The translations under genes were made by a program, and so were the position numbers. Positions 14,464-58,831 of a DNA stretch of 64,000 bases are shown here, one piece after another. Each line of letters opens with the position of its first letter. Position 1 is the first letter of the stretch. This stretch comes from an uncultured virus (IMG/VR IMGVR_UViG_3300046003_004339) (lineage: Duplodnaviria > Heunggongvirae > Uroviricota > Caudoviricetes), in the IMG/VR virus record IMGVR_UViG_3300046003_004339; one strand, written 5' to 3'. The notes under the pieces are model-generated. The model saw only the letters and a program-made list of their open reading frames with translations, was not told the origin of the DNA and ran no database searches.

Positions 14464-14736
14464 TCAAATAGTGTAGCACACTTTTTATAAAAAGTCAAGA
14501 AAAATATTTTTGTTATAAAATTTTTTAAGTTTGACTTTTTATATTTTTCTGACATACTCAAAACGATGCATATATACATTTTTATAAAAGTGGGATTTTG
14601 TGAAGTATATCAACTTTTTATAAAAAGTCAATTAATATAATTTAAAAAAAAAATCCTCATATGTCATCCACAAATTGTTTAATTTATATTAAATGAGGTG
14701 TGAATTTATAACTATAAATTTTTTATATACAATATT

Positions 14737-28793: not shown

Positions 28794-28979
28794 TTATTTT
28801 ATATCTCGGGCAGTAAATTGTGGTTGACTTGTGATTTTTTGTTTACCCGTAATTATGGTGACATTTTTATCTAAGGCAAGCTTTTTCAAGCCTCCGTATA
28901 ATTTTGCCATCTCTGCATAATTTTGAGGCGATCCTGTTCTTGGGTTTAGGTTGTTAGAATAATCAATTATTTTCGTCAT
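28794..28979 (-). CDS. 61-aa protein resembling a DnaB helicase Walker-B/H3 fragment
   Basis: IIDY...LKKLALDKNVTIITGKQ; start overlaps the NMNAT-Nudix stop. Confidence 0.45.
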   Translation of the reverse strand: MTKIIDYSNNLNPRTGSPQNYAEMAKLYGGLKKLALDKNVTIITGKQKITSQPQFTARDIK

Positions 28980-29967
28980 TTTCTGGTTGATTGGCACGTC
29001 TGGAACGAACTGGGTTTTGAGGAAAGTTTGTGTCGATGTATGCTTTAAGCATATTCCAAAGAGGAATATGTTCATCCATCAGAAAATAGTCAAGAGCTTC
29101 CGTGGGATTAAATTTGTCATAATCAAACCATCTGCATTCTGCGATATCGTCAGCAGCTTTTGGAGCACCCATGCTGTATAAACCAACATACAAATGAGTC
29201 ATGATTTTTTCCGAAGGATTATTTTTATAGCGCCAGTCGTCAACCTTTTTGCTACCGACATATCTAAGTCCTGCCAGACTAACGCTCAATCCACATTCTT
29301 CGTCAAGTTCTCGCAATGCAGCTTCTTCAAAAGAATCGTCTTTTGGGTCGATGAATCCACCAACAAAACGATAACCATTTTCAAGAGGCTTGCGAGCCAA
29401 TAGGATGCGACGTTCTTTTGGGTCGAACACAGCAACATCCACTGTGGAATAGACTGTAGGATATCTTTGGTATGTGGCCCAGATTGCTCCCGCCCTAAAT
29501 TGTGGGTTACTCTGTGGAGCTTGTGCAATCTTATTGCGCATTTCCGTGCCAGATACAAAGCGAGTTGCTTGTAATTCCTTTGTGGTAAATTTACCTTTGT
29601 AGTGCGAAAGGAACGAGTCTCTGCTACCATACAATACAACCGTGTCGTTGGGGCTAATAATGTCTCGGATTTGCCCGTCGAGTTTTTCCGACCAGTCGTC
29701 GTCGCTGCGATTATCTTTAATATAACCAATCGTTAAATTGGGAAACTTGTCATGTGGATAAGCCTCAAGCAACATTTGCTTTCTGGGCTGAAAGTCCAGC
29801 GGGTCGTGAATACTTCCTCGTACTTGACTTAGACCAAGGAAAATTACCACTTTGGCGTGATTTGCGATTACCGTGTTAATTAACTCGGTGTGTGCTTCGT
29901 GCAATGCTGCACATTGAAAACGTGCAACGATTACTCCGACAGTATAGTCTTTTGTTACTTCTTTCAT
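28963..29967 (-). CDS. bifunctional NMN adenylyltransferase / Nudix hydrolase (NadM-Nudix, NatV-like)
   Basis: ARFQ...HEAH, SGTEMR, Nudix box GG.....DSFEEAALRELDEECGL. Confidence 0.92.
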   Translation of the reverse strand: MKEVTKDYTVGVIVARFQCAALHEAHTELINTVIANHAKVVIFLGLSQVRGSIHDPLDFQPRKQMLLEAYPHDKFPNLTIGYIKDNRSDDDWSEKLDGQIRDIISPNDTVVLYGSRDSFLSHYKGKFTTKELQATRFVSGTEMRNKIAQAPQSNPQFRAGAIWATYQRYPTVYSTVDVAVFDPKERRILLARKPLENGYRFVGGFIDPKDDSFEEAALRELDEECGLSVSLAGLRYVGSKKVDDWRYKNNPSEKIMTHLYVGLYSMGAPKAADDIAECRWFDYDKFNPTEALDYFLMDEHIPLWNMLKAYIDTNFPQNPVRSRRANQPENDENN

Positions 29968-34948: not shown

Positions 34949-35550
34949 GTTGTTGTTTTTTCTTTCTTCAATGACCTCACAGTAACATAGTTTCTATCTA
35001 CGCAGAATGGATCTGTCTTAGCATGATCACAGTTTAGAGTTTTGTACCATCCACTTTTGGTCACATGCATTTCGCCCTTCTGTCCAGTGACTTCACATGT
35101 GCGCTCAGACAGTGTTTCGGCCATATGAATAACACCATCAAAATAAGCATTGTATCTGTTTATGATTTCTTTCAAATCAGGATATTTGTTGGTTTTTTCC
35201 AATTCAAGCAAATCAGAATCATATTGTAGATGATAATAGAAACGCAACGTACCAAACTTTTCTTTCACTTGATCTGCAACAAGTTGTGGAGGCTTTATAC
35301 TAAAATGATATGTCGTTTCATTTGAGTATGAATATGGAGCAATATTTAGACGCTTGCCGTCAACTTCATCCACCATAATAGAAGTTGAATAGGTATATGT
35401 TGCGGCTTGACACAAAGCATCAATCACATCATACCATCCGTCGCCAACCAAAATACCCCAATGCATGCAAGACTCAGTTTCAGAAGCATTTCTGTTCTTG
35501 AATATCTTGGGATATTTCTCACAAAGTTGTTTGTCTAATTCGGGTTTCAT
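34945..35550 (-). CDS. conserved phage hypothetical protein
   Basis: GDGWY, QVKEKFGTLRFY, SERTCEVTG. Confidence 0.8.
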   Translation of the reverse strand: MKPELDKQLCEKYPKIFKNRNASETESCMHWGILVGDGWYDVIDALCQAATYTYSTSIMVDEVDGKRLNIAPYSYSNETTYHFSIKPPQLVADQVKEKFGTLRFYYHLQYDSDLLELEKTNKYPDLKEIINRYNAYFDGVIHMAETLSERTCEVTGQKGEMHVTKSGWYKTLNCDHAKTDPFCVDRNYVTVRSLKKEKTTT

Positions 35551-36224
35551 ATAGTATCATATCTTACTTCAGGAAACAGGTGTTTGTCAATAAAATTCTT
35601 AACATCCTCTTCCTTGTATCCGCAGTTTATCAAAAAGCGAGATGTATGAATATTCTGCTTTTGATTTTTACAATATTTGTTGTGACGCTCTGACATGCTG
35701 AAATCAACAATGGTTATTCCCACATTGTTTATATAATAATCCAAGCAATCTTTGGCAACTTCAATGATCTGTTCAAGTTCAGCATCAGTATTCACTCCAC
35801 CAGCAGCAATCATATTTTCACTGAATATGTTCTTGCCCCAATCTGGCAGTTCACGGTCTTTTTTCCACACAAGGTCTTTGGTTCGGTTCTTGAACCATAC
35901 ATTCATTGGATGATTGCTTGTTGCCATACTGAAATCAAGAAATACTCCTGTTATCTTGTTGGCTCCGCAAATTACATCAAAGCCAAAGATTGGCGAAGTG
36001 TCATCAAGATGTGGAAATATACACACATGCATAATCCACATCTTTTTTTCTTCAATGACATTCAATATTTCAATATGACCACGACGAAATTTTGCTCCGC
36101 GAAATATACGATTGGTCCAGTTATATGCAGTTAGCATATCACTTTCAATTTCAGTATTGTTCTTGGCGATTTTTAGATATAAATCGCTAGACAACACTTT
36201 CATTTTGTCGAAGATGATGCTCAT
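35547..36224 (-). CDS. ferredoxin-dependent bilin reductase, PcyX/PcyA-like
   Basis: RRGHI, WIMHVCIFP, PIFGFDVI.G.NKITG.F.DFS, RELPDWG..IFS, YC.NQKQN.HT. Confidence 0.85.
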   Translation of the reverse strand: MSIIFDKMKVLSSDLYLKIAKNNTEIESDMLTAYNWTNRIFRGAKFRRGHIEILNVIEEKKMWIMHVCIFPHLDDTSPIFGFDVICGANKITGVFLDFSMATSNHPMNVWFKNRTKDLVWKKDRELPDWGKNIFSENMIAAGGVNTDAELEQIIEVAKDCLDYYINNVGITIVDFSMSERHNKYCKNQKQNIHTSRFLINCGYKEEDVKNFIDKHLFPEVRYDTI

Positions 36225-43289: not shown

Positions 43290-44355
43290 CCCCGAACCGA
43301 GGCTTGCCATCGGGAGTCATATTCTGATAGCGAACAGTCGCCAGCGTTTTGCCGATATAATTTTTCTTGTTCTTTAGCAAATCAATATAAAATTGTTCGT
43401 TGCCGCGAGCATTTGCTTCAAATTCGATTCCACTGGAAGTCACTAAACGAGCACGCCCAAACATTCCAGAACGATTTCCTTTACCCTCCGTAATGTCCAA
43501 AATCTTAAATTCATCATCAACAAACTCTTTTCTCTTGAGCAAGAATTTACTACGCTTATTTTCATATATATCGTCTGTGCGAATCATCTGACCTTCTTGA
43601 CCATCCATCAGATATTCTTGATATTTAGCATCAAGTTCTTCTTGGTCATTGACCAATGCAGTATCCACCATCACAATAGAATTGTGTTTGGGGAGTAGCT
43701 TTTTGAGTTCAGCATTTCGTTTGCTGAATACCAGTTCGCTACTGGGTAAATCATAGACCCAATATTGCAACGATACTTCGCTCTTATTCAAATCTTCTTT
43801 GGTCGGTTTGGTTTGCTTGGCAAGGCTGATGATGCTGTTGAAATCGTTCTTGAACTTATCGCAGAAAATTTCCCCGTCGAAAATCAACGAGGGGTCTTCC
43901 TCGAAAAGATGCTTCAACGCATTATAAATGTGAGGCGCTGAAGCAATTTTCTTTCCCGTTCGGCTCCACATACCATCTTTGCGAACAATACACCGCATAC
44001 CATCCAACTTTGGTTGAGTATAAACTGGAAATGAAAAATCAACATCCTCATACTTCTTAGCAAGCATTGGTTCAACATATGATGTGCATTCGTCAATTTT
44101 CTTTACATCAGTTGTATAACCGGTCTTGGATTTTTTGTCCCACTTGGCAAGTGCTTCACTATATGCTTGTTCAGCAGGAGTTGTTTCATTCTTTTTACCA
44201 ATATTCTTGCCTTCGCAAACCGTGGGTTCATTTTCAATTTTTTTACCATCTTGTTGACCAGTGATGCTATAATACTTGTTGCCATCAACAAGCATTTGCC
44301 AAGTTTGAATTGCACCAGTAGATGTACGACTAAAGAGAGTAGGAAGTGTTTTCAT
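43261..44355 (-). CDS. ATP-dependent DNA ligase
   Basis: PMLA, QPKLDGMR, FDGEIF, YDLP, EGQMIR, KRSKFLLKRK, OB domain ..PRF. Confidence 0.93.
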   Translation of the reverse strand: MKTLPTLFSRTSTGAIQTWQMLVDGNKYYSITGQQDGKKIENEPTVCEGKNIGKKNETTPAEQAYSEALAKWDKKSKTGYTTDVKKIDECTSYVEPMLAKKYEDVDFSFPVYTQPKLDGMRCIVRKDGMWSRTGKKIASAPHIYNALKHLFEEDPSLIFDGEIFCDKFKNDFNSIISLAKQTKPTKEDLNKSEVSLQYWVYDLPSSELVFSKRNAELKKLLPKHNSIVMVDTALVNDQEELDAKYQEYLMDGQEGQMIRTDDIYENKRSKFLLKRKEFVDDEFKILDITEGKGNRSGMFGRARLVTSSGIEFEANARGNEQFYIDLLKNKKNYIGKTLATVRYQNMTPDGKPRFGVIVAIRNYE

Positions 44356-44386
44356 GTTTATGATAGTGACTACTTTTTATAGAAAG

Positions 44387-44656
44387 TCAAGGATTTTTTG
44401 CGGCAAGTCGTCTGAAATATTCCAGACCTTTTTCCGATTGTTCTTTCTTTGCCTTTAGGGCTCGCAGCTTTTGATAAGCCGCAGTAGCCGCATCAAAATT
44501 GTCCTCCGCATCTGCCTTGGAATAAATAATCCGTTGTTCATCTACTGCCGTGGATATCTTTTCTGTGCGAATTTTCGCCGCCTCATAGTTATCACGATGC
44601 GTGATTTTCTTTATTTCGGCTAGCTCTGCCAAGAGTTCTTGTTTCCGTTTTTTCAT
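44387..44656 (-). CDS. hypothetical coiled-coil protein
   Basis: ORF. Confidence 0.6.
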   Translation of the reverse strand: MKKRKQELLAELAEIKKITHRDNYEAAKIRTEKISTAVDEQRIIYSKADAEDNFDAATAAYQKLRALKAKKEQSEKGLEYFRRLAAKNP

Positions 44657-44657
44657 T

Positions 44658-44879
44658 TTAGATGGATTTGAGGTGAGTCACCTTGACAACATCAATAGAA
44701 AACTGCACAGAGGTTTCGTTCTCGGCGGAAACAACTTGTTTGCCAGAACGATTGAACGCCACACGACAACCCTTCGGAGTGAAGGATGCGACCTTACCAA
44801 ATGCCAGTCCCTTATATACTGGCGGATTGAAAACCACGGTGTCTCCAATGGATAATTCTTGTCCAAGTTTGTCTTTCAT
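44658..44879 (-). CDS. conserved small phage protein
   Basis: MKDKLGQELSIGDTVVF...GKV..FTPK. Confidence 0.7.
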   Translation of the reverse strand: MKDKLGQELSIGDTVVFNPPVYKGLAFGKVASFTPKGCRVAFNRSGKQVVSAENETSVQFSIDVVKVTHLKSI

Positions 44880-44926
44880 GTTTATGAGAGTGACAGGTTT
44901 TTATAAAAAGTCAAGGATTTTTTGTA

Positions 44927-45289
44927 TTAGCAAACAAGCTTTTCAAATGCTGAGATAATCGGCAGTCGGCGTTGTTTTTCTTTTTCGGCAACACAAATAT
45001 TATATCCTTTCATTATCAACTTTTCATCATCTTCGGAAATAAATTTTTTATATTCTCCCGGAAACACATAAAGTGTATCAACACTAAGCATTGAAATTAT
45101 AAACATTTCTACGCCGATCTTTGTTTTTATATTAGGATAGGAAGTAAAGGAATACTCCAAATCCCATTTGTCCATATGTTCGGTCAGTGACACATAAATG
45201 CCTTTGGCAAAACATGAGTGTTCGACTGGAGTTGGTGTTGGTGTTGGTGTTGGTGTTTTCTTTTTGAATAGATTAGTTATAAATTTCAT
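44927..45289 (-). CDS. hypothetical protein with short PT repeat
   Basis: Own promoter copy. Confidence 0.65.
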   Translation of the reverse strand: MKFITNLFKKKTPTPTPTPTPVEHSCFAKGIYVSLTEHMDKWDLEYSFTSYPNIKTKIGVEMFIISMLSVDTLYVFPGEYKKFISEDDEKLIMKGYNICVAEKEKQRRLPIISAFEKLVC

Positions 45290-45332
45290 AATATAATTAG
45301 AATGACAGGTGTTTATAAAAAGTCAAGAAGTT

Positions 45333-45614
45333 TTATCCAGCGTATTGAATTTCTTTGTTGATACTAGGCGCACCATTCTGTGCGTCCAACTGCTTGATAT
45401 ATTCCGCAATGGCTTGTTCACCAGTAGGAATCTCTTCTTTGGTGATATAGCCTTCTTTAACATAATTATATATGAAGTCATAAGACCAGAACTCATATTC
45501 ATCTCCATTACGAGAATATCGGTCACGAATTGAACCAAATCGAAGTTGGCGTCCATCCTTCAAAATAAAGGCGGAAGCAGTTGAGAAACCAAGTGCGTCA
45601 AATACGATTTTCAT
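45333..45614 (-). CDS. hypothetical protein
   Basis: Own promoter copy. Confidence 0.65.
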   Translation of the reverse strand: MKIVFDALGFSTASAFILKDGRQLRFGSIRDRYSRNGDEYEFWSYDFIYNYVKEGYITKEEIPTGEQAIAEYIKQLDAQNGAPSINKEIQYAG

Positions 45615-45647
45615 AATGTAATTAGAATGACAGATTTTTATAAAAAG

Positions 45648-45776
45648 TCAAGAAACTTTTTTCTTTTTCTTGTGCTCGGCTTCAATTTTTTTCGCAAGCC
45701 GTTTGAGTGAACGCTTGCCCAATTTCAAAAAATCGGGATGATTGCATATTGCAGAGGCGAGTTGGACAGGTTTCAT
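45648..45776 (-). CDS. small basic protein (42 aa)
   Basis: MKPVQLASAICNHPDFLKLGKR...; ATG 34 nt from TTGACT; stop in next TTGAC. Confidence 0.5.
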   Translation of the reverse strand: MKPVQLASAICNHPDFLKLGKRSLKRLAKKIEAEHKKKKKVS

Positions 45777-45806
45777 AATAGTATAGTGACAGATTTTTAT
45801 AAAAAG

Positions 45807-45995
45807 TCAAGTATTTTTCTGAGGCTGTAATTGTAGTTGCGAATATAGTCGATCATATAGTTGCAAATCTAGTTGCGAATCTAGTTGTGACTCTAGTTCC
45901 CAATATAGTTGATCATATAGTTGCGAACTTAGTTGCGAACTTAGTTGAGAACGCAGTTGATACTGTACACTTTTACCCAGTTTTATTGGTTTCAT
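45807..45995 (-). CDS. QLxx tetrad-repeat mini-protein C4
   Basis: MKPIKLGKS then QLxx repeats. Confidence 0.75.
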   Translation of the reverse strand: MKPIKLGKSVQYQLRSQLSSQLSSQLYDQLYWELESQLDSQLDLQLYDRLYSQLQLQPQKNT

Positions 45996-46233
45996 TGTGT
46001 AGTTCCCAATCTAGCTGTAAAAATATTTGATCATAAAGTTGCGTATCCACTTGATCATAAATTTGCGTATCCAGTTGATCATATAGTTTATATAGTTGAT
46101 TATATATTTGCGGATCTAGTTGATTATATAGTTGCAAACCCAGTTGCGAACTTAGTTGATTCTCTAATTGATTATATAGTTGCGAACCTAGTTGCGAATT
46201 ACATAAACTTTTACCTAGATTTATTGGTTTCAT
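45973..46233 (-). CDS. QLxx tetrad-repeat mini-protein C3
   Basis: MKPINLGKS; 23-nt overlap with C4. Confidence 0.75.
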   Translation of the reverse strand: MKPINLGKSLCNSQLGSQLYNQLENQLSSQLGLQLYNQLDPQIYNQLYKLYDQLDTQIYDQVDTQLYDQIFLQLDWELHNETNKTG

Positions 46234-46387
46234 TGCATAGTTGCGAATCTAGTTGTGACTCTAGTTCCCAATATAGTTGATCATATAGTTGCGAATATAT
46301 TTGCGAATATATTTGCGACTTTAGTTGCCAATTTAGTTGCGAACTTAGTTGCGACTTTACACTCTTACCCAGTTTTACTGATTTCAT
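46211..46387 (-). CDS. QLxx tetrad-repeat mini-protein C2 (58 aa, absent from ORF track)
   Basis: MKSVKLGKSVKSQLSSQLNWQL...QLCNETNKSR. Confidence 0.75.
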   Translation of the reverse strand: MKSVKLGKSVKSQLSSQLNWQLKSQIYSQIYSQLYDQLYWELESQLDSQLCNETNKSR

Positions 46388-46577
46388 TGTGCAGTTGATT
46401 ATCCAGTGGCCTGTATAGTTGCCAATCTAGTTGCAAATCTAGTTGCAAATATAGTTGCGACTCTAGTTGCGAACTTAGTTGAGTATCTAGTTGCAAACGT
46501 AGTTGCGACTCTAGTCGCGAACCTAGTTGATAACTCAGTTGATACTTTACACTTTTACCCAGTTTTACTGGTTGCAT
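46365..46577 (-). CDS. QLxx tetrad-repeat mini-protein C1
   Basis: MQPVKLGKS. Confidence 0.75.
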   Translation of the reverse strand: MQPVKLGKSVKYQLSYQLGSRLESQLRLQLDTQLSSQLESQLYLQLDLQLDWQLYRPLDNQLHNEISKTG

Positions 46578-46581
46578 TGCA

Positions 46582-46920
46582 TCAATCTCTCACAGCATTC
46601 ATTCTGGCTGTAAATGGATCATATTCTTGCTGAGAACCAAATTCATATGTTCCTGCTGGCAGAGTGATAGAATCATGTCTATCAGAGTGTAAGCAGCGAA
46701 TTGTAGTTTCAACTGTATTTTCCATGAAAAGAGTGCCCTTGTCATCTTCATAAAAATCTACTCCTGTTGGCATATCAACCACATGATGATTGCCAGTAGT
46801 TTCGCTGTCGGCTACAATCATATAGCCATTGCTATTACGATTCTTTTTCTTTGCATTGGATGGCAGTTTGCTGGTAAATACCATGCATTCGCCGTGGAGG
46901 ATAACTTCGTTGTTTTTCAT
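46582..46920 (-). CDS. His-rich small beta protein of the type I recall beside DUF6745 genes
   Basis: HGE, ADSETTGNHH, H.DRHD.I.LP.GTY...QQEYDP...VRD. Confidence 0.75.
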   Translation of the reverse strand: MKNNEVILHGECMVFTSKLPSNAKKKNRNSNGYMIVADSETTGNHHVVDMPTGVDFYEDDKGTLFMENTVETTIRCLHSDRHDSITLPAGTYEFGSQQEYDPFTARMNAVRD

Positions 46921-46987
46921 ATATTTTATTATTATTATTGCTGTGTTTTATACTATGGTTGAATTTTTCAAAAAGTCAAATCTATTC

Positions 46988-47215
46988 TCAATTTTCATTG
47001 TTATAAAGTTGAGATTCAAGTTCTTGAGATAGTTGATCATATATTTGCGAATTTAGTTGCCAACATAATTGCGAACTTAGTTGCAAATATAGTTGCGACT
47101 CTAGGTGCGAATATAGTTGCCCATGTAGTTGCCGAAGAAGTTGCCTATCTAGTTGAGTATTTAGTTGCCAATATACTTGATCATATAAATTTTTACCCAG
47201 ATTTATTGGCTTCAT
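46988..47215 (-). CDS. QLxx tetrad-repeat mini-protein B4
   Basis: MKPINLGKN. Confidence 0.75.
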   Translation of the reverse strand: MKPINLGKNLYDQVYWQLNTQLDRQLLRQLHGQLYSHLESQLYLQLSSQLCWQLNSQIYDQLSQELESQLYNNEN

Positions 47216-47441
47216 TGTGTAGTTGCGACTCTAGTTGATCATCTAGTTGCCAACGTAGTTGGTCATCTAGTTGCGAATATAGTTGCGAATTTAGTTGCGA
47301 ATATAGTTGCGAATATAGTTGCGAACTTAGTTGCTTATATAGTTGAGTATCTAGTTGCCAATATTGTTGAATATTTAGTTTCCTATCTATTTGCGAAACT
47401 AGTTGATACTGTACACTCTTACCCAGATTTATTGGCTTCAT
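47193..47441 (-). CDS. QLxx tetrad-repeat mini-protein B3
   Basis: MKPINLGKS. Confidence 0.75.
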   Translation of the reverse strand: MKPINLGKSVQYQLVSQIDRKLNIQQYWQLDTQLYKQLSSQLYSQLYSQLNSQLYSQLDDQLRWQLDDQLESQLHNEANKSG

Positions 47442-47616
47442 TGTGTAGTTGATCATCTAGTTGCGAATTTAGTTGCCTGTATAGTTGAGTATATAGTTGC
47501 GAACGTAGTTGAAAATATAGTGGCCAACTTAGTTGAGAACTTAGTTGCTTATATTGCGAATCTAGTTGCGAACGTAGTTGATCATATAAATTTTTACCCA
47601 GATTTATTGGCTTCAT
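47419..47616 (-). CDS. QLxx tetrad-repeat mini-protein B2
   Basis: MKPINLGKN. Confidence 0.75.
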   Translation of the reverse strand: MKPINLGKNLYDQLRSQLDSQYKQLSSQLSWPLYFQLRSQLYTQLYRQLNSQLDDQLHNEANKSG

Positions 47617-47830
47617 TGTGTAGTTGTACATTTAGTTGCGAACGTAGTTGAGTATCTAGTTCCCAATATAGTTGCGAACTTAGTTGCGAACTTAGTTCCC
47701 GATATAGTTGCGAACGTAGTTGCGAATATAGTTGCGAATATAGTTGAGAACTTAGTCGCAACTCTAGTTGCGAAAGTATTTTCCTATCTAGTTGCGACTG
47801 TACACTCTTACCTAATTTTACTGATTTCAC
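47594..47830 (-). CDS. QLxx tetrad-repeat mini-protein B1
   Basis: GTGA overlap with the DUF6745-like stop. Confidence 0.75.
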   Translation of the reverse strand: MKSVKLGKSVQSQLDRKILSQLELRLSSQLYSQLYSQLRSQLYRELSSQLSSQLYWELDTQLRSQLNVQLHNEANKSG

Positions 47831-48714
47831 GCAATATTGACAATTTTCATTGTTTTACCACCAAATCTCTCAGCAATAGCCTGAACCAAATTACGAGACT
47901 GCGGAGAAACTGCTTCCACATGCCAGATGCCAGTAGTTTGATTGAGCATCTTGACATATGGCTGATAATCAAGTCCTTCAAACAGAACTTTCATATCCCA
48001 CAGTTCATATTGAGACTCATGCCAATAAGGATGTTCATTTGCGTCATAATTTTCATATGAATCAATCTTTTTACCCAAATGCAACATACGTTCAACGCCA
48101 AACTTTCTTACAAATTCAGCCTTGACATCAGCATTCTTTTCGGTGCTGAAAAATGAAATATCAAGTTGCTCTGAATCAGTTGTAACAAGTTTTTCCGGCA
48201 CACGCACACCATTCAGATACCACATGCCCCAGCCGTCGCTATATTCAATAGCCATGACCGATTCATTATGCAATCTGCCAGATTCATTTACAGTCAAACG
48301 AATTGGTCGCTCGGATACCAAAACATATTCTTCATATGGAAACCACCAATGTAGATTTTTAGCCTCTTGCATCCATTCTGCAAGCAACTCGGAGTCTTCT
48401 TTGCTATATTTGACTCCAATCATTTCTCCAAATGTGCAAAATGCTTTCCAGCCAATCCATTGCTGGCCCGAAAAATAATCCGACAGTCCAGATTCATCGC
48501 CACACAGTTTTCTATAATCAACGATGGCTTTGGGAGAAGGAAAATAAAGAAATTTTGGATTTTTGAGTCCAATTCTATTATAGAATTTGGTGATAATTTT
48601 CTCAGCAACATCGTGGTTGATTGGTTCAATAGATCGTCCAATGTTCAGCATTTCGTTATAGAACTTGCTCAGTTGCTCAGTTTGATCGTCGGTCAATTTT
48701 TGTATTGTGCTCAT
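47827..48714 (-). CDS. DUF6745-like protein
   Basis: IQKLT..Q, F.SP, GQ.W..W..F, WWFPYE....SERP, GRLH.....AIEYSDGW..W.LNGVRVP, EKNA.V......K.G.ER, VKM...TTG..H.E.V.P. Confidence 0.8.
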   Translation of the reverse strand: MSTIQKLTDDQTEQLSKFYNEMLNIGRSIEPINHDVAEKIITKFYNRIGLKNPKFLYFPSPKAIVDYRKLCGDESGLSDYFSGQQWIGWKAFCTFGEMIGVKYSKEDSELLAEWMQEAKNLHWWFPYEEYVLVSERPIRLTVNESGRLHNESVMAIEYSDGWGMWYLNGVRVPEKLVTTDSEQLDISFFSTEKNADVKAEFVRKFGVERMLHLGKKIDSYENYDANEHPYWHESQYELWDMKVLFEGLDYQPYVKMLNQTTGIWHVEAVSPQSRNLVQAIAERFGGKTMKIVNIA

Positions 48715-48758
48715 ATTTTAAGTTTTGTAATGTTATTATGAATGTTGATGAATAAAAG

Positions 48759-48980
48759 TCAAGATGTTTTTATGTTTTGTTCCAATTGAATACTCAGTTG
48801 CAAATATAGTTGATTATCTAGTTGATTATATAGTTGCGAATTTAGTTGTGAATATAGTGGCGAAGTTAGTTGGTTATTTAGTTGTAAAACTAGTTGCGAA
48901 CGTAGTCGATAACATAGTTGCGAATCTAGTTGCGAATCTAGTTGAGTATGTAGTTTCTTACCTAATTTTATCGGTTTCAT
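48759..48980 (-). CDS. QLxx tetrad-repeat mini-protein A3
   Basis: MKPIKLGKK. Confidence 0.75.
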   Translation of the reverse strand: MKPIKLGKKLHTQLDSQLDSQLCYRLRSQLVLQLNNQLTSPLYSQLNSQLYNQLDNQLYLQLSIQLEQNIKTS

Positions 48981-49206
48981 TGCGTAGTTGATCATCTAGT
49001 TGCCAACGTAGTTGGTCATGTAGTTGCCTATCTAGTTGCGAATATAGTTGCGAATATAGTTGCAAACGCAGTTGCGAACGTAGTTGAGTATCTAGTTGCC
49101 AAAGTAGTTGCGAATCTAGTTGCGAACATAGTTGAGTATCTAGTTGCGAACATAGTTGCCCATGTAGTTGATACTTTATACTTTTACCTAATTTTATTGG
49201 TTTCAT
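48958..49206 (-). CDS. QLxx tetrad-repeat mini-protein A2
   Basis: MKPIKLGKS. Confidence 0.75.
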   Translation of the reverse strand: MKPIKLGKSIKYQLHGQLCSQLDTQLCSQLDSQLLWQLDTQLRSQLRLQLYSQLYSQLDRQLHDQLRWQLDDQLRNETDKIR

Positions 49207-49420
49207 TGTGTAGTTGATCATCTAGTTGCCAACGTAGTTGGTCATCTAGTTGCCAAAGTAGTTGCGAATCTAGTTGAAAACTTAGTCGAGTATCTAGTTG
49301 CGAATTTAGTTGCGAATTTAGTTGAGTATGTAGTCGGGTATCTAGTTGAGTATATAGTTGACCATATAGTTGACCATATAGTTGCAATTCTATATTTTTA
49401 CCTAATTTTATTGGTTTCAT
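49184..49420 (-). CDS. QLxx tetrad-repeat mini-protein A1
   Basis: MKPIKLGKN; ATGA overlap with upstream gene. Confidence 0.75.
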   Translation of the reverse strand: MKPIKLGKNIELQLYGQLYGQLYTQLDTRLHTQLNSQLNSQLDTRLSFQLDSQLLWQLDDQLRWQLDDQLHNETNKIR

Positions 49421-49743
49421 TTCTTTTCTTTTGGAAGTTCATAAACTTTACTTACAGCAGCAACCACATCTTTTAGTGTGCGATACAATGTAGCATGCAA
49501 TGGAGTTTGCTGAACTTTTGCACGACTGTTATATACATTTTGATATACATTCACAACTGCTTCAACAAATTCATTTTCATATGAACAAAGTGAAACATAT
49601 TGATATTGGTTTTCGTGCTTGCGAACAAGATAAAACAAGCCAGTTACAGGCGTGCCAAGATCTTCATAATAGTTATTTTTGTCGCGTGCTCCTTGTTTGA
49701 ATCCAAGAGTTTCAAGTGATGTTTTCAAAGTTTCGTTTTTCAT
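49417..49743 (-). CDS. hypothetical protein heading repeat block A
   Basis: Own promoter copy. Confidence 0.65.
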   Translation of the reverse strand: MKNETLKTSLETLGFKQGARDKNNYYEDLGTPVTGLFYLVRKHENQYQYVSLCSYENEFVEAVVNVYQNVYNSRAKVQQTPLHATLYRTLKDVVAAVSKVYELPKEKK

Positions 49744-50016
49744 TTGAACTCCACAATGGCTGCTTTTTATAGAAAGTCAAGCAGATAGTTATTATGGAAT
49801 GCAAAAGTTCCACGTTGTGTTTGGACGCAACCACGAAGAAGTTTTATTGGTTTGGGCATTGCGTTCTACCATATCTGGCAAGCCAATCAACATCTTTTTA
49901 TATACATTTGCCAAGTTTGAGTATATAAACAAGCGAAAGATGGAAAATCATCTAAAATCTATACATTCATATATGGTGAATACCAACGATAACTACGACT
50001 TGATGCACTAGTGTTT

Positions 50017-50187
50017 CTAAGCCGTTTCTATGGCTATATAATGGTTTTGACTAAAGTTTAGGGTTACTCCATCTATTCTAACAGCATGACCATCTATTTT
50101 CACGCTTTGAGCATCTACTCTAAATTCTAGCAGTGGCTCACTCTGACCACCTAGATATATTTTTATAATGTATGTTCGATCAAACAT
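50017..50187 (-). CDS. hypothetical protein (56 aa)
   Basis: MFDRTYIIKIYLGG; upstream ATATTTAT. Confidence 0.5.
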   Translation of the reverse strand: MFDRTYIIKIYLGGQSEPLLEFRVDAQSVKIDGHAVRIDGVTLNFSQNHYIAIETA

Positions 50188-50224
50188 GATATTATATAAA
50201 TATATGTTTGTTTTATTATAATAA

Positions 50225-51118
50225 TCAAAAACAACTGTTTAGGTCACTGTCTGGTATATAATAATTGTTTATGTCACGTAGATTTATATTATTGTTACAA
50301 TCGTATATATTCACAACGCCATCTTCAATGATGGCATAATGATTGGATTGAGTGTCCAAGTTGTAACTAACACTCAAATACTCTGGGTCAAGTTTATTTG
50401 GTTGATCCAACAGTTTGTAATGTTCAGTCACATCTTGTTTCACAAAGCCACCATGTTTGTGTTGTACCAACACTTGCGGAACACGATGAATGCTGTGACC
50501 AACTATTTGATTTATACCATTGACTGGCCCAAAGGTGTTCCAATCAACCCAGTTGATGCCACCATATTGTTGATATCCTCCACGCTCCCAACCAGCACCA
50601 AACAATTCAACATTGTTGTTTAGATTTGCTTGTTCTAGTGCAATAGTTGTTTCTTGCTGTAACACATGATCAAAAAATTCAAGTTTTGAAGCAAACTTTG
50701 TTTCATCAAAGTTCAATGAATATTTTTTCCAAAGTTTGTTGGTCAATCCAGCATGACTAAACACATGATTTTGATCAATGTGATATACACGAAACTTTGC
50801 TTTATCTTCATTGGTCAATACATCATTTATAGCAACACTTTTATAGGGAGTATAGCCCGAGCACCTAAAATGTATATTTTCAGGCCAAATATATGAAGTG
50901 CAATGATTGCCCATAAGTGGAACAATTTTTGGATTATGCAGTATTTTCTCTTTGAGCCAAACCGCAGTGGCCCTAGCATATTCTACTGCGTGTGCACCTT
51001 CACCATGATTGTCAAAATAATCACCTGTGAGCACAAGTTTATCATGTGGCACTTTATCTATAATAGATTGTGCTCGTATGATACGATTGTGAATATCTGA
51101 AATACATAGGGTGCGCAT
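50225..51118 (-). CDS. calcineurin-like metallophosphoesterase
   Basis: SDIH, GDYFD, GNH, SHAG, QIVGHS. Confidence 0.88.
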   Translation of the reverse strand: MRTLCISDIHNRIIRAQSIIDKVPHDKLVLTGDYFDNHGEGAHAVEYARATAVWLKEKILHNPKIVPLMGNHCTSYIWPENIHFRCSGYTPYKSVAINDVLTNEDKAKFRVYHIDQNHVFSHAGLTNKLWKKYSLNFDETKFASKLEFFDHVLQQETTIALEQANLNNNVELFGAGWERGGYQQYGGINWVDWNTFGPVNGINQIVGHSIHRVPQVLVQHKHGGFVKQDVTEHYKLLDQPNKLDPEYLSVSYNLDTQSNHYAIIEDGVVNIYDCNNNINLRDINNYYIPDSDLNSCF

Positions 51119-51138
51119 CTGTTGACTATAGACTGCAC

Positions 51139-51516
51139 CTAAACATTGTCAATCTTTTTCTTGTTGCACAAATATTTGCTATTCATGAAATTGTCAGCAT
51201 CCATGCTTGCTTTCTTTTTGTTGCAAGCATTGCAACATACCACAAAGTTGTTGTGATCAAATGCATCGCCGCCAACGGACTTTGCTTTGTAATGATCTAC
51301 AGTGGCTTGATCATTTCGGCGCAAAGATTTATATTTCAATTCTTTTTCGCAATAAAAACAAACCAACTTGTTTTTCTTTTCCAGTTCTTCTTTGAGAAAA
51401 TCATTGCGTGATGTTGCCCAACGCTTGCGCTCCATTTGAGCATACAAGCGTTGCAGCAACACAAGATTAGCATAACTGCTAATATGCACATCATCCATAT
51501 GGATGAAATGTTTCAT
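51139..51516 (-). CDS. HNH endonuclease
   Basis: CFYC, ATVDH, GG, N.VVCCNACNKKK. Confidence 0.85.
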   Translation of the reverse strand: MKHFIHMDDVHISSYANLVLLQRLYAQMERKRWATSRNDFLKEELEKKNKLVCFYCEKELKYKSLRRNDQATVDHYKAKSVGGDAFDHNNFVVCCNACNKKKASMDADNFMNSKYLCNKKKIDNV

Positions 51517-51848
51517 TTATCCACGTCATCTCTGTCCCATTCATAACCGTCTTCACCATAACACTTTTCACCTTTGTCAAGTGAATCGCACAGCAATTGC
51601 TTTTTCTTTGGAAGATTACCATCTGTTCTTGCTTTGGGAGATTCCCAAACAATCTTGACGCTATCCATATGCTTTTCTGGCATATAAACCAGTCGTATGC
51701 CATTTTGAGCAAAAAGATTCACAAGTTCATCCAGTTTCATACCCTTCCACTTTGACAGATTATCAGCGCCGCCAGCTTGTATCACAGCGTTGCGCATCAT
51801 AAGATAGAAGTCATCTTGACACAGTTTTACTTTGATATCGTTGTTCAT
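51513..51848 (-). CDS. hypothetical protein
   Basis: Coupled ORF. Confidence 0.6.
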   Translation of the reverse strand: MNNDIKVKLCQDDFYLMMRNAVIQAGGADNLSKWKGMKLDELVNLFAQNGIRLVYMPEKHMDSVKIVWESPKARTDGNLPKKKQLLCDSLDKGEKCYGEDGYEWDRDDVDK

Positions 51849-51853
51849 AAATT

Positions 51854-52645
51854 TTAAGTCCAGAAAAAATCACGATTGGTCACAATCCAAACCAAATATT
51901 TGGTATCTTCTTTGTTGATGAGCACTTCCAAACGAGTGTTTTCAGCATAATCAACTTCAAATACACCAGTCATCGTTTCTTCGTCTGGGTATGAATCATC
52001 ATGTTGCTTTTGCAAATCGGGACGACGATTCTTCACATAGTCATAACAATCCTTCAACTCATTGGCAAACTTTGCATGATCTTCTCCAGATGCTTCATAG
52101 TCAGTGTTATCAAAACATTTTTCACCTTCTATAAAATGAACCACCATAGCAAAATTGAGTTCAGTAATAAGATGTGTCTTGTCACTCCAACAATCTGGAA
52201 TTTGATTCTTGAGCCATTTCTGACGTGGATTTAGTTTATATTCAAGCCAATCATATGCACGACTGATCTTGCATTTCAAGCTAAAGCAGTTTTCACGCAG
52301 CCAGTATTGAACAGGAAAGCGATATTGTAAAAATGTGTCAATAGCATCACGTTCAGACTTGCGTCCAAGAATGTTATGCCCATCACTTATGATGGCATCC
52401 AAATACCAGAAATATAGATATGTGCGCTTGCTGCGTGGCATATCCATATATTCATCTGCGTTCTTTACAATCCGATATCTTGTAAATGGATTGTTGTCTT
52501 CCAACCAATAGCAGAAGTTGTAATACATATGACGAAATGTAGTTGTGTCTGTATCTGGCATTTTTACAGCACGATTATGCTTGCTGAAAATTTCAGCGGA
52601 TTCTTTCATAGAATCAGTAAGTTCTTTTTCGTTAGAATTGTTCAT
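51854..52645 (-). CDS. conserved phage hypothetical protein
   Basis: IP..WSDK..LI...F, DTKYL..IV..R...WT. Confidence 0.7.
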   Translation of the reverse strand: MNNSNEKELTDSMKESAEIFSKHNRAVKMPDTDTTTFRHMYYNFCYWLEDNNPFTRYRIVKNADEYMDMPRSKRTYLYFWYLDAIISDGHNILGRKSERDAIDTFLQYRFPVQYWLRENCFSLKCKISRAYDWLEYKLNPRQKWLKNQIPDCWSDKTHLITELNFAMVVHFIEGEKCFDNTDYEASGEDHAKFANELKDCYDYVKNRRPDLQKQHDDSYPDEETMTGVFEVDYAENTRLEVLINKEDTKYLVWIVTNRDFFWT

Positions 52646-55474: not shown

Positions 55475-58400
55475 TTAGCCGATATTCAGTTTTACTCTAG
55501 GACTTATAGTACTTTGCGAACCGTCAGACAGCAATACATATTTTCCACCACCATATGCAAGTGCGCCCCAATATTGGTTGTATCCAGTTGTTGACGGAGT
55601 CCAAGATATAGCATCCGTTGATGTGAATACGTTATATCCGTCGCTTGCATACCAACTGCTTGCCACGAACTTCGTTCCATCATATATTATCTTACTCACT
55701 GAAACATAAGAACTGGTTGATACATAACTGCCTGTCCAATTGATACCATCTGTAGAAGATACCACAAAACTGTCATCGTCTGAGGTCATGACAAACTTGC
55801 CGTTTGCAAACACAACATCGTTGTACCAATAATCTGGCAGCGAGGATGAGTTCCAAGTCACAGCATCAGTCGAATACATTCCTTTGTCACATGTGTTTTG
55901 AATACCTAATTTATTATCATCGTTATTACCAGTAGCTAGCACAGTTCCATCGTTTTTGATGATATACGTGAAATTGGATCCACAATATACTTTACTTACA
56001 TTGGTTGCTGATAGAGTTGGAACATCATAGCTGGTATAATTACCAACTCCAAGTTGTCCATCTCCGTTTGTTCCCATGCTATATAGTGTACCATCATTTG
56101 CTATAAACGATGCATAACCCCCTCCAACCGATACTTGACTGACACTTCCAGATATCAAGACTGGAATTAGTTGATCGGTATAATCTGCGCCAATTCCAAG
56201 TTGACCATTTGCGTTGGATCCTATTCCCCATAATGTGTTGTCATTTTTGATATAGTATGATGTTCCATTGGATACTGCACAAGATACGACATTTGTCTCT
56301 ATGAGATAGGATGATGTTTGATCGACGGTATCACCGGTTCCAAGTTGGCCGTTCGCGTTGCCACCAATACCATACAAGTTTCCATTGCTCTTGACATACA
56401 ACATTTGGTCGGAAGAAACGGACGCCTGAACAACGCTTGTGTCCAATTGGATTGATGCTGTTACATATGAACCATATGCAGACCCAGTCAGTTGTCCGTT
56501 ATAGTTATATCCCATACCCCACAATGTGTTGTCATTCTTGATATAAACTGTGGTATATGTAGAATATGGTCCGCTAAACGATTGCGATACATTTGTGTCT
56601 ATTTGAATTGGGTGCTTTCTTCCAATGCGGGTTCCGTCTCCAAGTTGTCCGTTATAGTTGGCTCCCATAGCCCACAATGTGTTGTCGTTTTTGACAAATG
56701 TGGTGTTGTATTCACCACATGCCACATTTCTTACATTTGAAACAATTGGAACAAACTTTATGAACGTGTTAAGTGAACTATCCAATCCAAGTTGACCATC
56801 GTTGTTTTCGCCAACGCCATATAATATGCCGTCTTTCAGCACCGTGGCATAAGTACTTCCAAGTGAAATATAGCTTGCTGTGTTTCCATCAAATGTTACT
56901 GAGAATTGATTTTTATCTCCATACGTGCTGTAAGTACCGTAACCAGTTGATATCACGTATGTTCCGTTGCCGTAAGCAATGCTTGTATTGTATACGGGAA
57001 ATGCCGGAATTTGTTCTGCCCAATCGATTCCATTTGATGATGTGACTATTCTGTCTTCACCAACGGCAATGAACTTACCATTGACATACCTTACTCGGTT
57101 TAGATCGTCATAGTTTGTGTTGTTCAACGAACCTGTTGTCCAAGTAATACCATCACTTGATGTAAATACTTCCGGTCTACCGTCGTTGTATCCGTCGGAC
57201 ACATTCGAAACAGCAACATATGTATCAGTTCCATTATATGCTATACCAGAAATTCCAGATTGCACATTTGTAATAGAACCGGTTGTCCAATTTTTACCGT
57301 TTGCGGAATATCTGATATCTGTGTGTCCCTCGCCGCCACCAGCAATAAATTTTCCATCGGCGTATATAACATCGTTCCAGTAAATTTCATCGGTGCCAGA
57401 GTTGTCGGAGAAATTAAATTTATCCGTGCCATCAGTTGTCCAACCTGTTTGGTCTGTATAATACATATTGAATGGAAGTACATAGTTGCCCAATTGCCAG
57501 TAATCGTTGTACCCCATTCCATACAGAGTTTTGTCGCTCTTGATATATAAACCATATTGATTTCCACCGACGGCGTATGTTACATTTGTATCTATGACGA
57601 TTGGCTCAATGGTATTGTTCTGGTACTTGTCACTGAGTTGCCCAGAATTTCCATTGCCCATGCCATACAATGTGCCGTCATTCTTGATATAGTATGTGAA
57701 ATATCCACCACCACCAACAAACTTTACATTTGTGTCAACAAATTGTGGCACAGATACATTAAAGTCATCATATCCATACGATGTTCCAAGTTGGCCATTT
57801 CCGTTATTACCAAATGTATATAAATTACCACTTGTGTCAATATATGCACTATGATATCCCATTGCTGCACATGATGCTACGCTTGATGTGATTTCATATG
57901 GATTATCCCAATTGAACGAAGAACTTACAGCAGATTCGATACCCAACTGATTATAAAAATTGCTTCCGATTCCCCACAGTGTGTTATCATTCTTGATATA
58001 CAACAAGTGACGACCACCTCCAGAAATAGATTTTACATTGCTTGCTATTTCAGTAAATATGGTTGCGCCCAATCCAAACGTTTCATCTGTTGATACCCAC
58101 ACAGTGTTATCGCTCATATGCAATGCGCTGTAATACTGACCGGCCACGATATTTGTTATTGTACCAGAACCTGTGATGTCACCTTCGAGCACTGTTTGTG
58201 TCCATACAGTATAATCACTGAATTCACCATTTCCAAATGTTCCATTTCCGCCATCTCCGGTAAACCAAAGAGTATTGTCGTTCTTGACTGCGCCAGCAAA
58301 CCCACCAAAACCTTCGCCGCCGAAACTTGCTACACAACTTGATGCTGCGAGTTTAACATTCGTGAGTGACAAGCTTGCAGATTGACGATAACTGGTATAT

Positions 58401-58831
58401 CCTACACCAACTTCTCCGGTACTATTATAGCCCATAGACCATAATTGGTTTTCGGCATTTAGCACATAACTGCTATGATATCCCGCCCAAGCGCCAATGA
58501 TGTTTCCAATAGTCGGAAGAATGATTTCCTTCGCAAAAATTGACTTTGTTTTACTCAACCGAGTCCATCCATTTTTACTATTTCCCTCGCCAGTTTTCAA
58601 CCAAGTTTCATTTGGAGTAGAAAAAGTTATTGTTTCTTGTTTTAAAGTGGGATACCAGATCTCATTTTTATAGTGAATTGCGAAGGATTTTTTAGAAATG
58701 ATCAATTTTTTTACAGTGCCATTTGTAAATAAAAAGAAATTTTCTCCTTCTCGTAAGAAGACGCTGCCTTTTGGTGCTATTACTATATTCTCCGGGTTTG
58801 AACTTGATAGTTGGCTTGTTGAATTACTCAT
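55475..58831 (-). CDS. large RCC1-repeat plus SxDGxxW beta-propeller protein, putative fibre/receptor-binding protein
   Basis: Many K.D.TLW.MG.N..GQLG repeats; S.DGI.W repeats; shared N-domain. Confidence 0.85.
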   Translation of the reverse strand: MSNSTSQLSSSNPENIVIAPKGSVFLREGENFFLFTNGTVKKLIISKKSFAIHYKNEIWYPTLKQETITFSTPNETWLKTGEGNSKNGWTRLSKTKSIFAKEIILPTIGNIIGAWAGYHSSYVLNAENQLWSMGYNSTGEVGVGYTSYRQSASLSLTNVKLAASSCVASFGGEGFGGFAGAVKNDNTLWFTGDGGNGTFGNGEFSDYTVWTQTVLEGDITGSGTITNIVAGQYYSALHMSDNTVWVSTDETFGLGATIFTEIASNVKSISGGGRHLLYIKNDNTLWGIGSNFYNQLGIESAVSSSFNWDNPYEITSSVASCAAMGYHSAYIDTSGNLYTFGNNGNGQLGTSYGYDDFNVSVPQFVDTNVKFVGGGGYFTYYIKNDGTLYGMGNGNSGQLSDKYQNNTIEPIVIDTNVTYAVGGNQYGLYIKSDKTLYGMGYNDYWQLGNYVLPFNMYYTDQTGWTTDGTDKFNFSDNSGTDEIYWNDVIYADGKFIAGGGEGHTDIRYSANGKNWTTGSITNVQSGISGIAYNGTDTYVAVSNVSDGYNDGRPEVFTSSDGITWTTGSLNNTNYDDLNRVRYVNGKFIAVGEDRIVTSSNGIDWAEQIPAFPVYNTSIAYGNGTYVISTGYGTYSTYGDKNQFSVTFDGNTASYISLGSTYATVLKDGILYGVGENNDGQLGLDSSLNTFIKFVPIVSNVRNVACGEYNTTFVKNDNTLWAMGANYNGQLGDGTRIGRKHPIQIDTNVSQSFSGPYSTYTTVYIKNDNTLWGMGYNYNGQLTGSAYGSYVTASIQLDTSVVQASVSSDQMLYVKSNGNLYGIGGNANGQLGTGDTVDQTSSYLIETNVVSCAVSNGTSYYIKNDNTLWGIGSNANGQLGIGADYTDQLIPVLISGSVSQVSVGGGYASFIANDGTLYSMGTNGDGQLGVGNYTSYDVPTLSATNVSKVYCGSNFTYIIKNDGTVLATGNNDDNKLGIQNTCDKGMYSTDAVTWNSSSLPDYWYNDVVFANGKFVMTSDDDSFVVSSTDGINWTGSYVSTSSYVSVSKIIYDGTKFVASSWYASDGYNVFTSTDAISWTPSTTGYNQYWGALAYGGGKYVLLSDGSQSTISPRVKLNIG

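Follow-up and report, generated by a model that had tools for sequence, protein, structure and literature searches.

A phage locus with a DUF6745 gene, a histidine-rich partner and eleven chained mini-genes carrying a diversified four-residue repeat

The stretch of DNA analyzed here, 64,000 nucleotides from an uncultured member of the Caudoviricetes (IMG/VR record IMGVR_UViG_3300046003_004339; hereafter the window), is a large phage contig whose minus strand carries nearly all genes. It includes eleven short minus-strand open reading frames (ORFs) of 58-86 amino acids, hereafter minis, each with a conserved head of the type MKPIKLGK followed by four-residue repeats (tetrads) in which Q and L are constant and two further positions, x1 and x2, vary. 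These minis form blocks of 3, 4, and 4 around two longer minus-strand genes, one encoding a 295-residue DUF6745 protein (47827-48714) and the other a 112-residue, histidine-rich partner (46582-46920). The window contains 11 occurrences of the 24-nucleotide head pattern, where 100 shuffles predict 0.00, tetrad tracts are confined to 45807-49420, and Tandem Repeats Finder reports period-12 arrays throughout the mini region. A prior reading of the letters, made without database searches (the sequence-only reading), had described eleven chained mini-ORFs in blocks of 3, 4, and 4, and all of them were found in place on one strand. It had put the number of tetrads at about 10-17 per mini; the lower bound stands and the upper does not, since [QE][LIVM] dipeptides number 10-16 per mini (143 in total).

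Each block follows a leader gene. Block C follows a 108-residue gene (49417-49743, minus strand) without a Pfam or PHROG family and without a homolog in the other DUF6745 loci, and comprises C1 (49184-49420; 78 amino acids, head MKPIKLGK, 14 tetrads), C2 (48958-49206; 82 amino acids from the MKP start or 87 from an ATG at 49221, 16 tetrads), and C3 (48759-48980; 73 amino acids). Block B follows the DUF6745 gene, with B1 (47594-47830; 78 amino acids), B2 (47419-47616; 65 from the MKP start), B3 (47193-47441; 82 from the MKP start), and B4 (46988-47215; 75 amino acids). Block A follows the partner gene, with A1 (46365-46577; 70 amino acids, head MQPVKLGK), A2 (46211-46387; 58), A3 (45973-46233; 86), and A4 (45807-45995; 62), all lengths being counted from the MKP-type start. 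The coupling proposed earlier, by ATGA or GTGA overlaps or a 4-nucleotide gap, holds for the first mini of each block: the stop of the 108-residue gene overlaps the start of C1 (ATGA, 49417-49420), the GTG start of B1 overlaps the DUF6745 stop (GTGA, 47827-47830), and a 4-nucleotide gap (46578-46581) separates the partner stop from A1. Inside the blocks it had to be refined, as each mini starts 23 nucleotides upstream of the preceding stop, in the next frame, and the eight head-to-head distances (214, 226, 214, 175, 226, 190, 154, and 238) all equal 1 modulo 3.

Because of this out-of-frame overlap, the tail of one mini (ending in HNETNKSG before the stop) is the same DNA as the head of the next (MKPINLGK). 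The head is retained even where it has no tail to overlap with, in the opening mini of each block, while the HNETNK-type tail is missing from the last mini of every block (C3 has a tail of another type and B4 ends in YNNEN). Selection thus acts on the head, and the tail is its by-product. The minis are only 60-75% alike at the DNA level in a long direct-repeat analysis and are therefore not recent block copies, and their isoelectric points span 4.2 to 9.7, for which reason a role as a uniformly acidic DNA mimic was rejected. At E ≤ 0.1, none of the 11 minis had a match to a Pfam repeat family (leucine-rich or pentapeptide), the period being four residues. The head pattern had no match in viral contigs, and none of the 32 matches in a protein-pattern scan was a relative; five matches in metagenome contigs lacked tetrads and were discarded as chance.

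We then considered how the repeat varies, using the 115 tetrad units of the window minis. The codons for Q and L hardly vary, while at x1 the codon entropy reaches 1.94 bits at the first base and 0.49 at the third. Not a single in-frame stop is found in these units, against 12.2 expected from column-independent composition, so that the accumulation of stops which, according to the sequence-only reading, would have spoken against the mini-genes is absent. Four further lineages (loci L004, L005, L007, and L010) repeat this codon pattern with their own constant hydrophobic codon: CTA in the window, TTA in L004, CTG in L005, and the valine codon GTC in L007 and L010. The use of different codons for the same residue class across lineages argues for constraint at the protein level, with homogenization inside each array, and QL and QV lineages fill their x positions from the same residue classes. 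Ratios of non-synonymous to synonymous polymorphism (pN/pS) at x1 and x2 were 1.59, 3.85, 4.07, 1.84, and 0.77, thus >1 in four of five lineages, although these are rough Nei-Gojobori estimates among units rather than orthologs, figures for QL are circular as units were chosen by QL, and L010 is the lineage at 0.77. Taken together, the codon data show protein-level constraint on Q and L and an excess of non-synonymous variation at x1 and x2. A diversity-generating retroelement is not indicated: the adenines of CAACTA show almost no variation (entropy 0-0.58 bits), array sequences stay stable across four metagenome runs, and a non-exhaustive scan of 17 large window ORFs revealed no reverse transcriptase.

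The 295-residue protein belongs to DUF6745 (also phrog_31813), as had been suspected from its letters: a hidden Markov model search returned PF20530 at 59.7 bits (gathering cut-off 27, E 3.1e-16), and a first search yielded 240 homologs at E ≤ 0.001. It is collinear with the family over its full length, with an N-terminal LTxEQ domain and a C-terminal NADVKAEF...YELWDM...NQTTG.WH core, and an alignment of 33 sequences contains 24 invariant columns. The sequence-only reading had stated that such proteins often carry a tetrad tract between their SP and GQ..W motifs and had given this interval as about 20 non-repetitive residues here. The alignment bears out both points, since some homologs carry ([QE][LV]xx)n in this place and the interval to GQQW in the window protein measures 21 non-repetitive residues, which sets it apart from the tract-bearing subgroup; the insertion-site loop comprises residues 71-83 (about 48468-48504). 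Runs of 7-28 consecutive [QE][LV]xx tetrads are present in 6 of 120 listed homologs, and in the alignment these tracts, like that of P0072, all fall at the same site, bounded by the SP motif and YFxGQQW. The longest, in P0124, has about 70 QVxx tetrads. Other dialects of the repeat are xNLx (L009, 6001-7287) and SSLx, the latter in GenBank MW202476 (gene at 46595-47872) and in L055 (4356-5633), where the SSLx tetrads stand at the same site with one varying position (R, G, E, or W). At that site the 530-residue protein P0125 from ENA has x-A-T-x tetrads, as would result from a repeat of the TCG-CAA-CTA type read one frame over.

The mini tracts are thus homologous to the internal tract of these relatives. 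The tract-bearing proteins (for example those of P0060, P0083, P0124, MW202476, and L077) share the LTxEQ domain and C-terminal core with the window protein, and their repeat, likewise built as polar, Leu/Val, x, x, occupies the loop that the window protein has in short form; in the window, by contrast, the repeat lies outside the core, in 11 separate genes with a conserved head of their own. The predicted DUF6745 structure (predicted local distance difference test, pLDDT, 93; predicted template modelling score, pTM, 0.80) is helical in its N-terminal domain, where the insertion loop lies, and mixed beta/alpha in the parts that follow. It has no convincing solved relative, with no Foldseek match at E ≤ 0.001 and a best VIA-align Z of 3.9, and the DUF6745 profile found no relative in bacterial genome contigs. 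A literature search returned no paper naming DUF6745 or PF20530, and none on hypervariable tetrapeptide repeats of bacteriophage.

At E ≤ 0.001, the partner's family comprises 1965 cluster representatives, almost all of them 100-125 amino acids long, with invariant residues G10, A37, E40, G43, H46, H82, E99, V110, and D112, a pattern to which the window protein conforms. The invariant E, H, H, E, and D probably mark a metal site. Its predicted structure (pLDDT 90.8) is all-beta with a C-terminal helix and has no convincing solved relative (no Foldseek match at E ≤ 0.001; best VIA-align Z 3.3), nothing in the PDB sequence profiles fell below E 0.38, and neither Pfam, NCBIfam, nor PADLOC holds a model of the family. 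In bacterial genome contigs, the partner profile matched four short contigs of metagenome-assembled genomes and nothing else.

Next, we evaluated the distribution of the three parts across 49 related loci obtained from a profile scan of IMG/VR, in which the partner was located by hmmsearch on locus ORFs and minis, defined as ORFs of at most 160 amino acids with at least 4 tetrads, were sought within 6 kb. The partner occurs in 47 of 49 loci, always on the strand of DUF6745, and the other two loci end at a contig edge beside the gene. In 36 of 48 cases including the window it lies within 150 nucleotides of DUF6745, and it stands upstream in 13 and downstream in 33. Minis on the same strand accompany the pair in 16 of 49 loci (at least 2 minis in 10 of these), and opposite-strand minis in none. 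The co-occurrence that the sequence-only reading proposed to survey is thus real, albeit with differing heads: MNFTKPIK in L004, MKPIKEQL in L005, MNLRNKV in L007, and MTSQNKV in L010, the four loci in which minis are likewise chained, the next ATG lying inside the AAT-GAA of the preceding tail. The closest relative, L003 (73% identity), has the order three minis, partner, DUF6745, one mini, with plain ATGA overlaps. The window's other neighbor genes have no homolog in the 49 loci. Tract-bearing loci (L008, L009, L015, and L031) have no minis, and most of the 29 loci with neither tract nor minis carry a non-repeat insert of about 35 amino acids at the tract site. As 29 of the 45 tract-less loci are free of minis, the repeat is accessory rather than obligatory, and the core works without a tetrad element.

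Beyond these loci, we scanned 301 sampled cyanobacterial genomes with PF20530; 34 scored over the cut-off, some with several matches (at most 8), and the protein was seen in two forms. The first, of about 350-400 amino acids, has the same N-terminal domain as the window protein; L077 (about 13 QLxx tetrads) and L073 carry a QLxx tract at the same site, and the partner gene lies directly upstream of DUF6745 in L073, L075, and L077. The second, of 600-1300 amino acids, carries N-terminal leucine-rich repeats (LRRs; L064, L069, L070, L072, L074, and L076), with no partner gene detected beside it, and an ESM Atlas structure search likewise led to cyanobacterial DUF6745 and LRR fusions (clusters of 72 and 103 members). 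These fusions join the same core to a variable leucine-based recognition repeat and fit a logic of recognition repeat plus DUF6745 core, but they differ from the phage forms in that the LRRs stand on the N-terminal side of the whole domain and the genes are chromosomal and multi-copy.

The only cultured phage found with the pair is the Microcystis phage Ma-LMM01, in which gp174 (DUF6745) and gp175 (partner) stand among replication genes. According to supplementary Table S3 of PMC5780444, both genes fall in middle sub-cluster B5, and their log2 FPKM (fragments per kilobase per million) values rise from 0 to 11.6 and 12.6, respectively. The two genes, encoded on one strand as in the window, are thus expressed together as part of the middle class, to which replication and repair genes also belong. 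Ma-LMM01 differs from the window in that gp174 is only about 26% identical, has a non-repetitive loop insert, and is not accompanied by mini-genes, and gp175 has QGDV/GEVTGHKH where the window partner has HGEC/SETTGNHH.

Within the window, the transcription signals rest on one motif, TTGACTTTT, which has 16 sites where 1.67 are expected; 15 of these lie on the coding (minus) strand, usually 30-45 nucleotides ahead of a start codon. Its fuller form is TTGACTTTT(T)ATAAAAA (for example at 45802-45810, 45643-45651, 45318-45326, 44906-44914, and 14490-14498), and it is probably an early or middle promoter of the phage; the short distance from motif to start suggests very short leaders. Minus-strand promoter-like sites lie ahead of the DUF6745 gene (48735-48762, TTGACT-16-CATAAT, of the TTGACTTTT family) and of the partner gene (46950-46979, beginning with TTGACTTTT). 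Every mini block ends at such a motif, the stops of C3 and A4 lying within TTGACT itself (for A4, that of the next motif at 45802-45810). From the leader genes and these block ends we infer three transcription units, each of a leader and 3-4 minis, the first of which would be led by the 108-residue gene. A generic scan was weak: promoter-like sites numbered 43 where 29.1 +/- 5.5 were expected, and the terminator-like sites, 3 where 3.3 were expected, lay without exception on the plus strand. The transcription reading therefore relies on the TTGACTTTT motif.

The region is also present in field populations. Across 45700-49800, 75-91% of sampled words were found in 20 lake-water metagenome runs from 20 studies (2020-2025), and no RNA run figures among the 24 runs listed. 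We compared the window with contigs of at least 90% likeness from four runs (X1, X9, X14, and X20; 2020-2025), keeping in mind that such contigs lose rare variants and that X1 is possibly the window's own sample. These contigs break at the tetrad tracts and are elsewhere almost identical to the window, with 0 differences in X14 over 45918-47098 and in X1 over 46266-47156 and 47785-49013, single-letter differences at 45991, 45998, 47287, 47301, 47303, 48226, and 48298, and no insertion or deletion listed in any of the four. The loop site of DUF6745 (about 48468-48504) is covered in all four runs and carries no insertion. Joints from tract to tract have short sides of 20-53 letters, and one joint recurs in two runs: contigs of X1 and X9 connect 47627 with 49137, places that belong to separate mini blocks, through 19 letters of other sequence, which represents either a variant array in the population or the repeat ambiguity of short-word assembly. 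In two 2020 runs, contigs over 49465-49714, inside the 108-residue gene, have a depth of 64-96 compared to 13-21, with 16-23 differences, suggesting that a commoner related strain has this gene and not an identical array region. In GenBank phages, megablast found no close relative of window positions 44000-52000, and neither a mini nor the partner as query gave a tblastn match at E ≤ 0.001.

Elsewhere, the window carries 3 tRNA genes and encodes helicases, a thymidylate synthase, and a DNA ligase, along with a nicotinamide phosphoribosyltransferase (27326-28753, E 2.6e-150) that adjoins a NUDIX and cytidylyltransferase-like protein (28963-29967), both on the minus strand; these two constitute a phage NAD salvage pair. 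A 225-residue protein (35547-36224, minus strand) matches phrog_7278, a phage "ferredoxin oxidoreductase" auxiliary-metabolism family (E 2.7e-19), which may hint at a cyanobacterial host. A protein of 1118 amino acids (55475-58831, minus strand) has several matches to RCC1-like ("regulator of chromosome condensation") repeats (phrog_7220, E 1.4e-86).

We next modeled DUF6745 in complex with mini C1, using our own alignments and three controls, a kind of modeling that the sequence-only reading had suggested as a check. The pair passed the controls, with a complex-model score of 0.72 (runs 0.62, 0.72, and 0.72) against 0.04 for the best control; of 157 solved complexes, 116 attain this mark, as do 2 of 215 mismatched pairs, a benchmark that is rough here as own alignments were used. 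Contacts agreed between runs to at least 53%, and the pLDDT of the mini chain was at least 71. The modeled interface involves the head (residues 1-15) and most of the repeat on the mini side, and on the DUF6745 side the N-terminal domain, including insertion-loop residues 75-82 and strand 125-128. The complex model thus favors mini binding to DUF6745, in that it supports binding and does not show it.

Overall, we consider it about evenly balanced, and prefer as our working interpretation, that the locus is a conserved three-part phage module, with DUF6745 and the beta-rich partner as its core and the minis as accessory, translated genes that are detached and diversified copies of the tetrad tract. 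Each unit of a leader and 3-4 minis would be transcribed from a TTGACTTTT-type promoter, and each mini would be translated by re-initiation at an ATG 23 nucleotides upstream of the previous stop, a chain from which roughly equal amounts of all minis would be expected. On the core side, the docking place of a mini would be the N-terminal helical domain of the repeat-less DUF6745, close to the loop that in other members holds the tract in cis; on the mini side, the conserved head and the repeat helix would make the contact. The eleven minis would thus be rivals for a single core and would provide it with eleven alternative surfaces for target recognition. The sequence-only reading had already proposed modules supplied in trans: this is supported by the co-occurrence in 16 of 49 loci, the diversification of the x positions, and the complex model, without being shown, and it does not hold as an obligatory arrangement, 29 of 45 tract-less loci being mini-free.

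Several observations weigh against the module as proposed. The complex is a model only, built for the mini side on an alignment of 11 paralogs from one genome, and the minis are known here from their DNA sequence alone. Two of the three blocks do not follow DUF6745, as block C follows the unrelated 108-residue gene and block A the partner. No mini lies within 6 kb in 33 of the 49 loci, 29 of which also lack an internal tract, and the complementarity between tract and minis is not significant (0 of 4 loci versus 16 of 45; about 0.19). The x-A-T-x tract of P0125 means that the identity of the tract residues may matter less than assumed, and the limits of the pN/pS comparison given above, including the low ratio in L010, also weigh against the module.

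Some of these observations would be expected if the minis were real but independent proteins, for instance decoys or inhibitors of host proteins, that arose by tract duplication and do not bind DUF6745. The arrays follow three different leaders in the window, most DUF6745 loci are mini-free, and a range of isoelectric points from 4.2 to 9.7 would make a chemically diverse panel. We nevertheless regard this as rather unlikely, since same-strand linkage to the core pair recurs in 16 of 49 loci, in lineages with different heads, the complex model passes its controls, and independence leaves the conserved head without a stated purpose.

It is also conceivable that the tracts are merely expansions of a 12-nucleotide minisatellite (CAACTAnnnnnn), downstream of genes and in a permissive DUF6745 loop, kept open and translated only to avoid polarity and yielding functionless peptides. 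The strict 12-nucleotide period, the homogenization of the CAACTA core and of third codon positions within each genome, the P0125 repeat that by inference looks like the same DNA one frame over, and the dispensability of the repeat in most loci would all be consistent with such an origin. Against it, Leu/Val is retained across lineages by way of different codons, QL and QV lineages use the same residue classes at the x positions, conserved heads with start codons are present in 11 of 11 units, in-frame stops number 0 where 12.2 are expected, and the arrays were stable from 2020 to 2025 with no slippage. We thus hold this explanation to be improbable.

Prochlorosins are a multi-precursor peptide system, and systems of this type likewise combine many small genes with a conserved N-terminus and a hypervariable body with one or two constant proteins nearby. 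By analogy, the minis could be precursor peptides modified by DUF6745 and the partner, the latter having a set of invariant residues (E, H, H, E, and D) reminiscent of a metal site, and a fused protein would then contain its own substrate; that fused and split forms both occur would be in keeping with this. The window differs from prochlorosins, however, in having no known modifying enzyme, a strict four-residue repeat body, and a fused form inside a folded domain. Scans of the module and its near neighbors against Pfam, PHROGs, NCBIfam, and PADLOC gave no modifying enzyme of the kind acting on ribosomally synthesized and post-translationally modified peptides, and so no known modifying-enzyme family is seen in the module. 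Moreover, the minis lack the Cys/Ser/Thr patterns usual for such substrates, their leader would be about 8 residues only, and in fused forms the tract sits in the middle of the folded domain, all of which makes a precursor role very improbable. A second familiar system offers an analogy only: transcription activator-like effector (TALE) repeats have 33-35 residues with repeat-variable diresidues and, like the minis, combine a constant scaffold residue pair with two diversified positions per repeat. The mini repeat is 4 residues long rather than 33-35, and the likeness is one of sequence that implies no nucleic-acid binding. PADLOC-DB defense models did not match DUF6745, the partner, the LRR fusion, or L077, and gave only chance-level rows for a mini (E 0.014 and 0.036).

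The sequence-only reading had offered as its alternative that the array is a donor library, i.e., silent cassettes recombined into the short DUF6745 loop, as might be suggested by a repeat-less core lying between arrays of just the repeat that is found in this loop of homologs. This is not supported: every cassette keeps its own start codon and stop, neither a recombinase nor a flanking repeat is seen at the loop, and in contigs of four runs from 2020-2025, which lose rare variants, the loop has no insertion and the arrays are near-identical, leaving the idea scarcely credible. That each block is instead one gene read into a long repeat protein by programmed +1 frameshifts, as the +1 frame step at every junction in the window and three other lineages would allow, can practically be set aside, given that every junction has a start codon, that a TAG closes the +1 frame within a few codons before each start, that known slippery or stop-stimulated shift motifs are absent, and that the closest relative, L003, has plain ATGA overlaps.

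Returning to the three-part module, a further step, which we advance tentatively and with some doubt, is that it encodes a built-in repertoire: a two-protein core that takes up one of eleven diversified helical modules at a time, the x-x residues of each module spelling a different target specificity, and the variable part being either fused or detached. Its targets may be variable host defense or surface-independent host factors met in the replication phase. A four-residue repeat with two variable positions is also a possible minimal designable binding scaffold, and the fused, LRR-linked, and detached forms are natural controls for experiments. If this interpretation is true, one core served by many exchangeable, fast-diversifying repeat modules would be a new viral way to encode a specificity repertoire in little DNA, and it would provide a function for a large unstudied pair, i.e., DUF6745 of cyanobacteria and many phages and a partner family for which no model exists.

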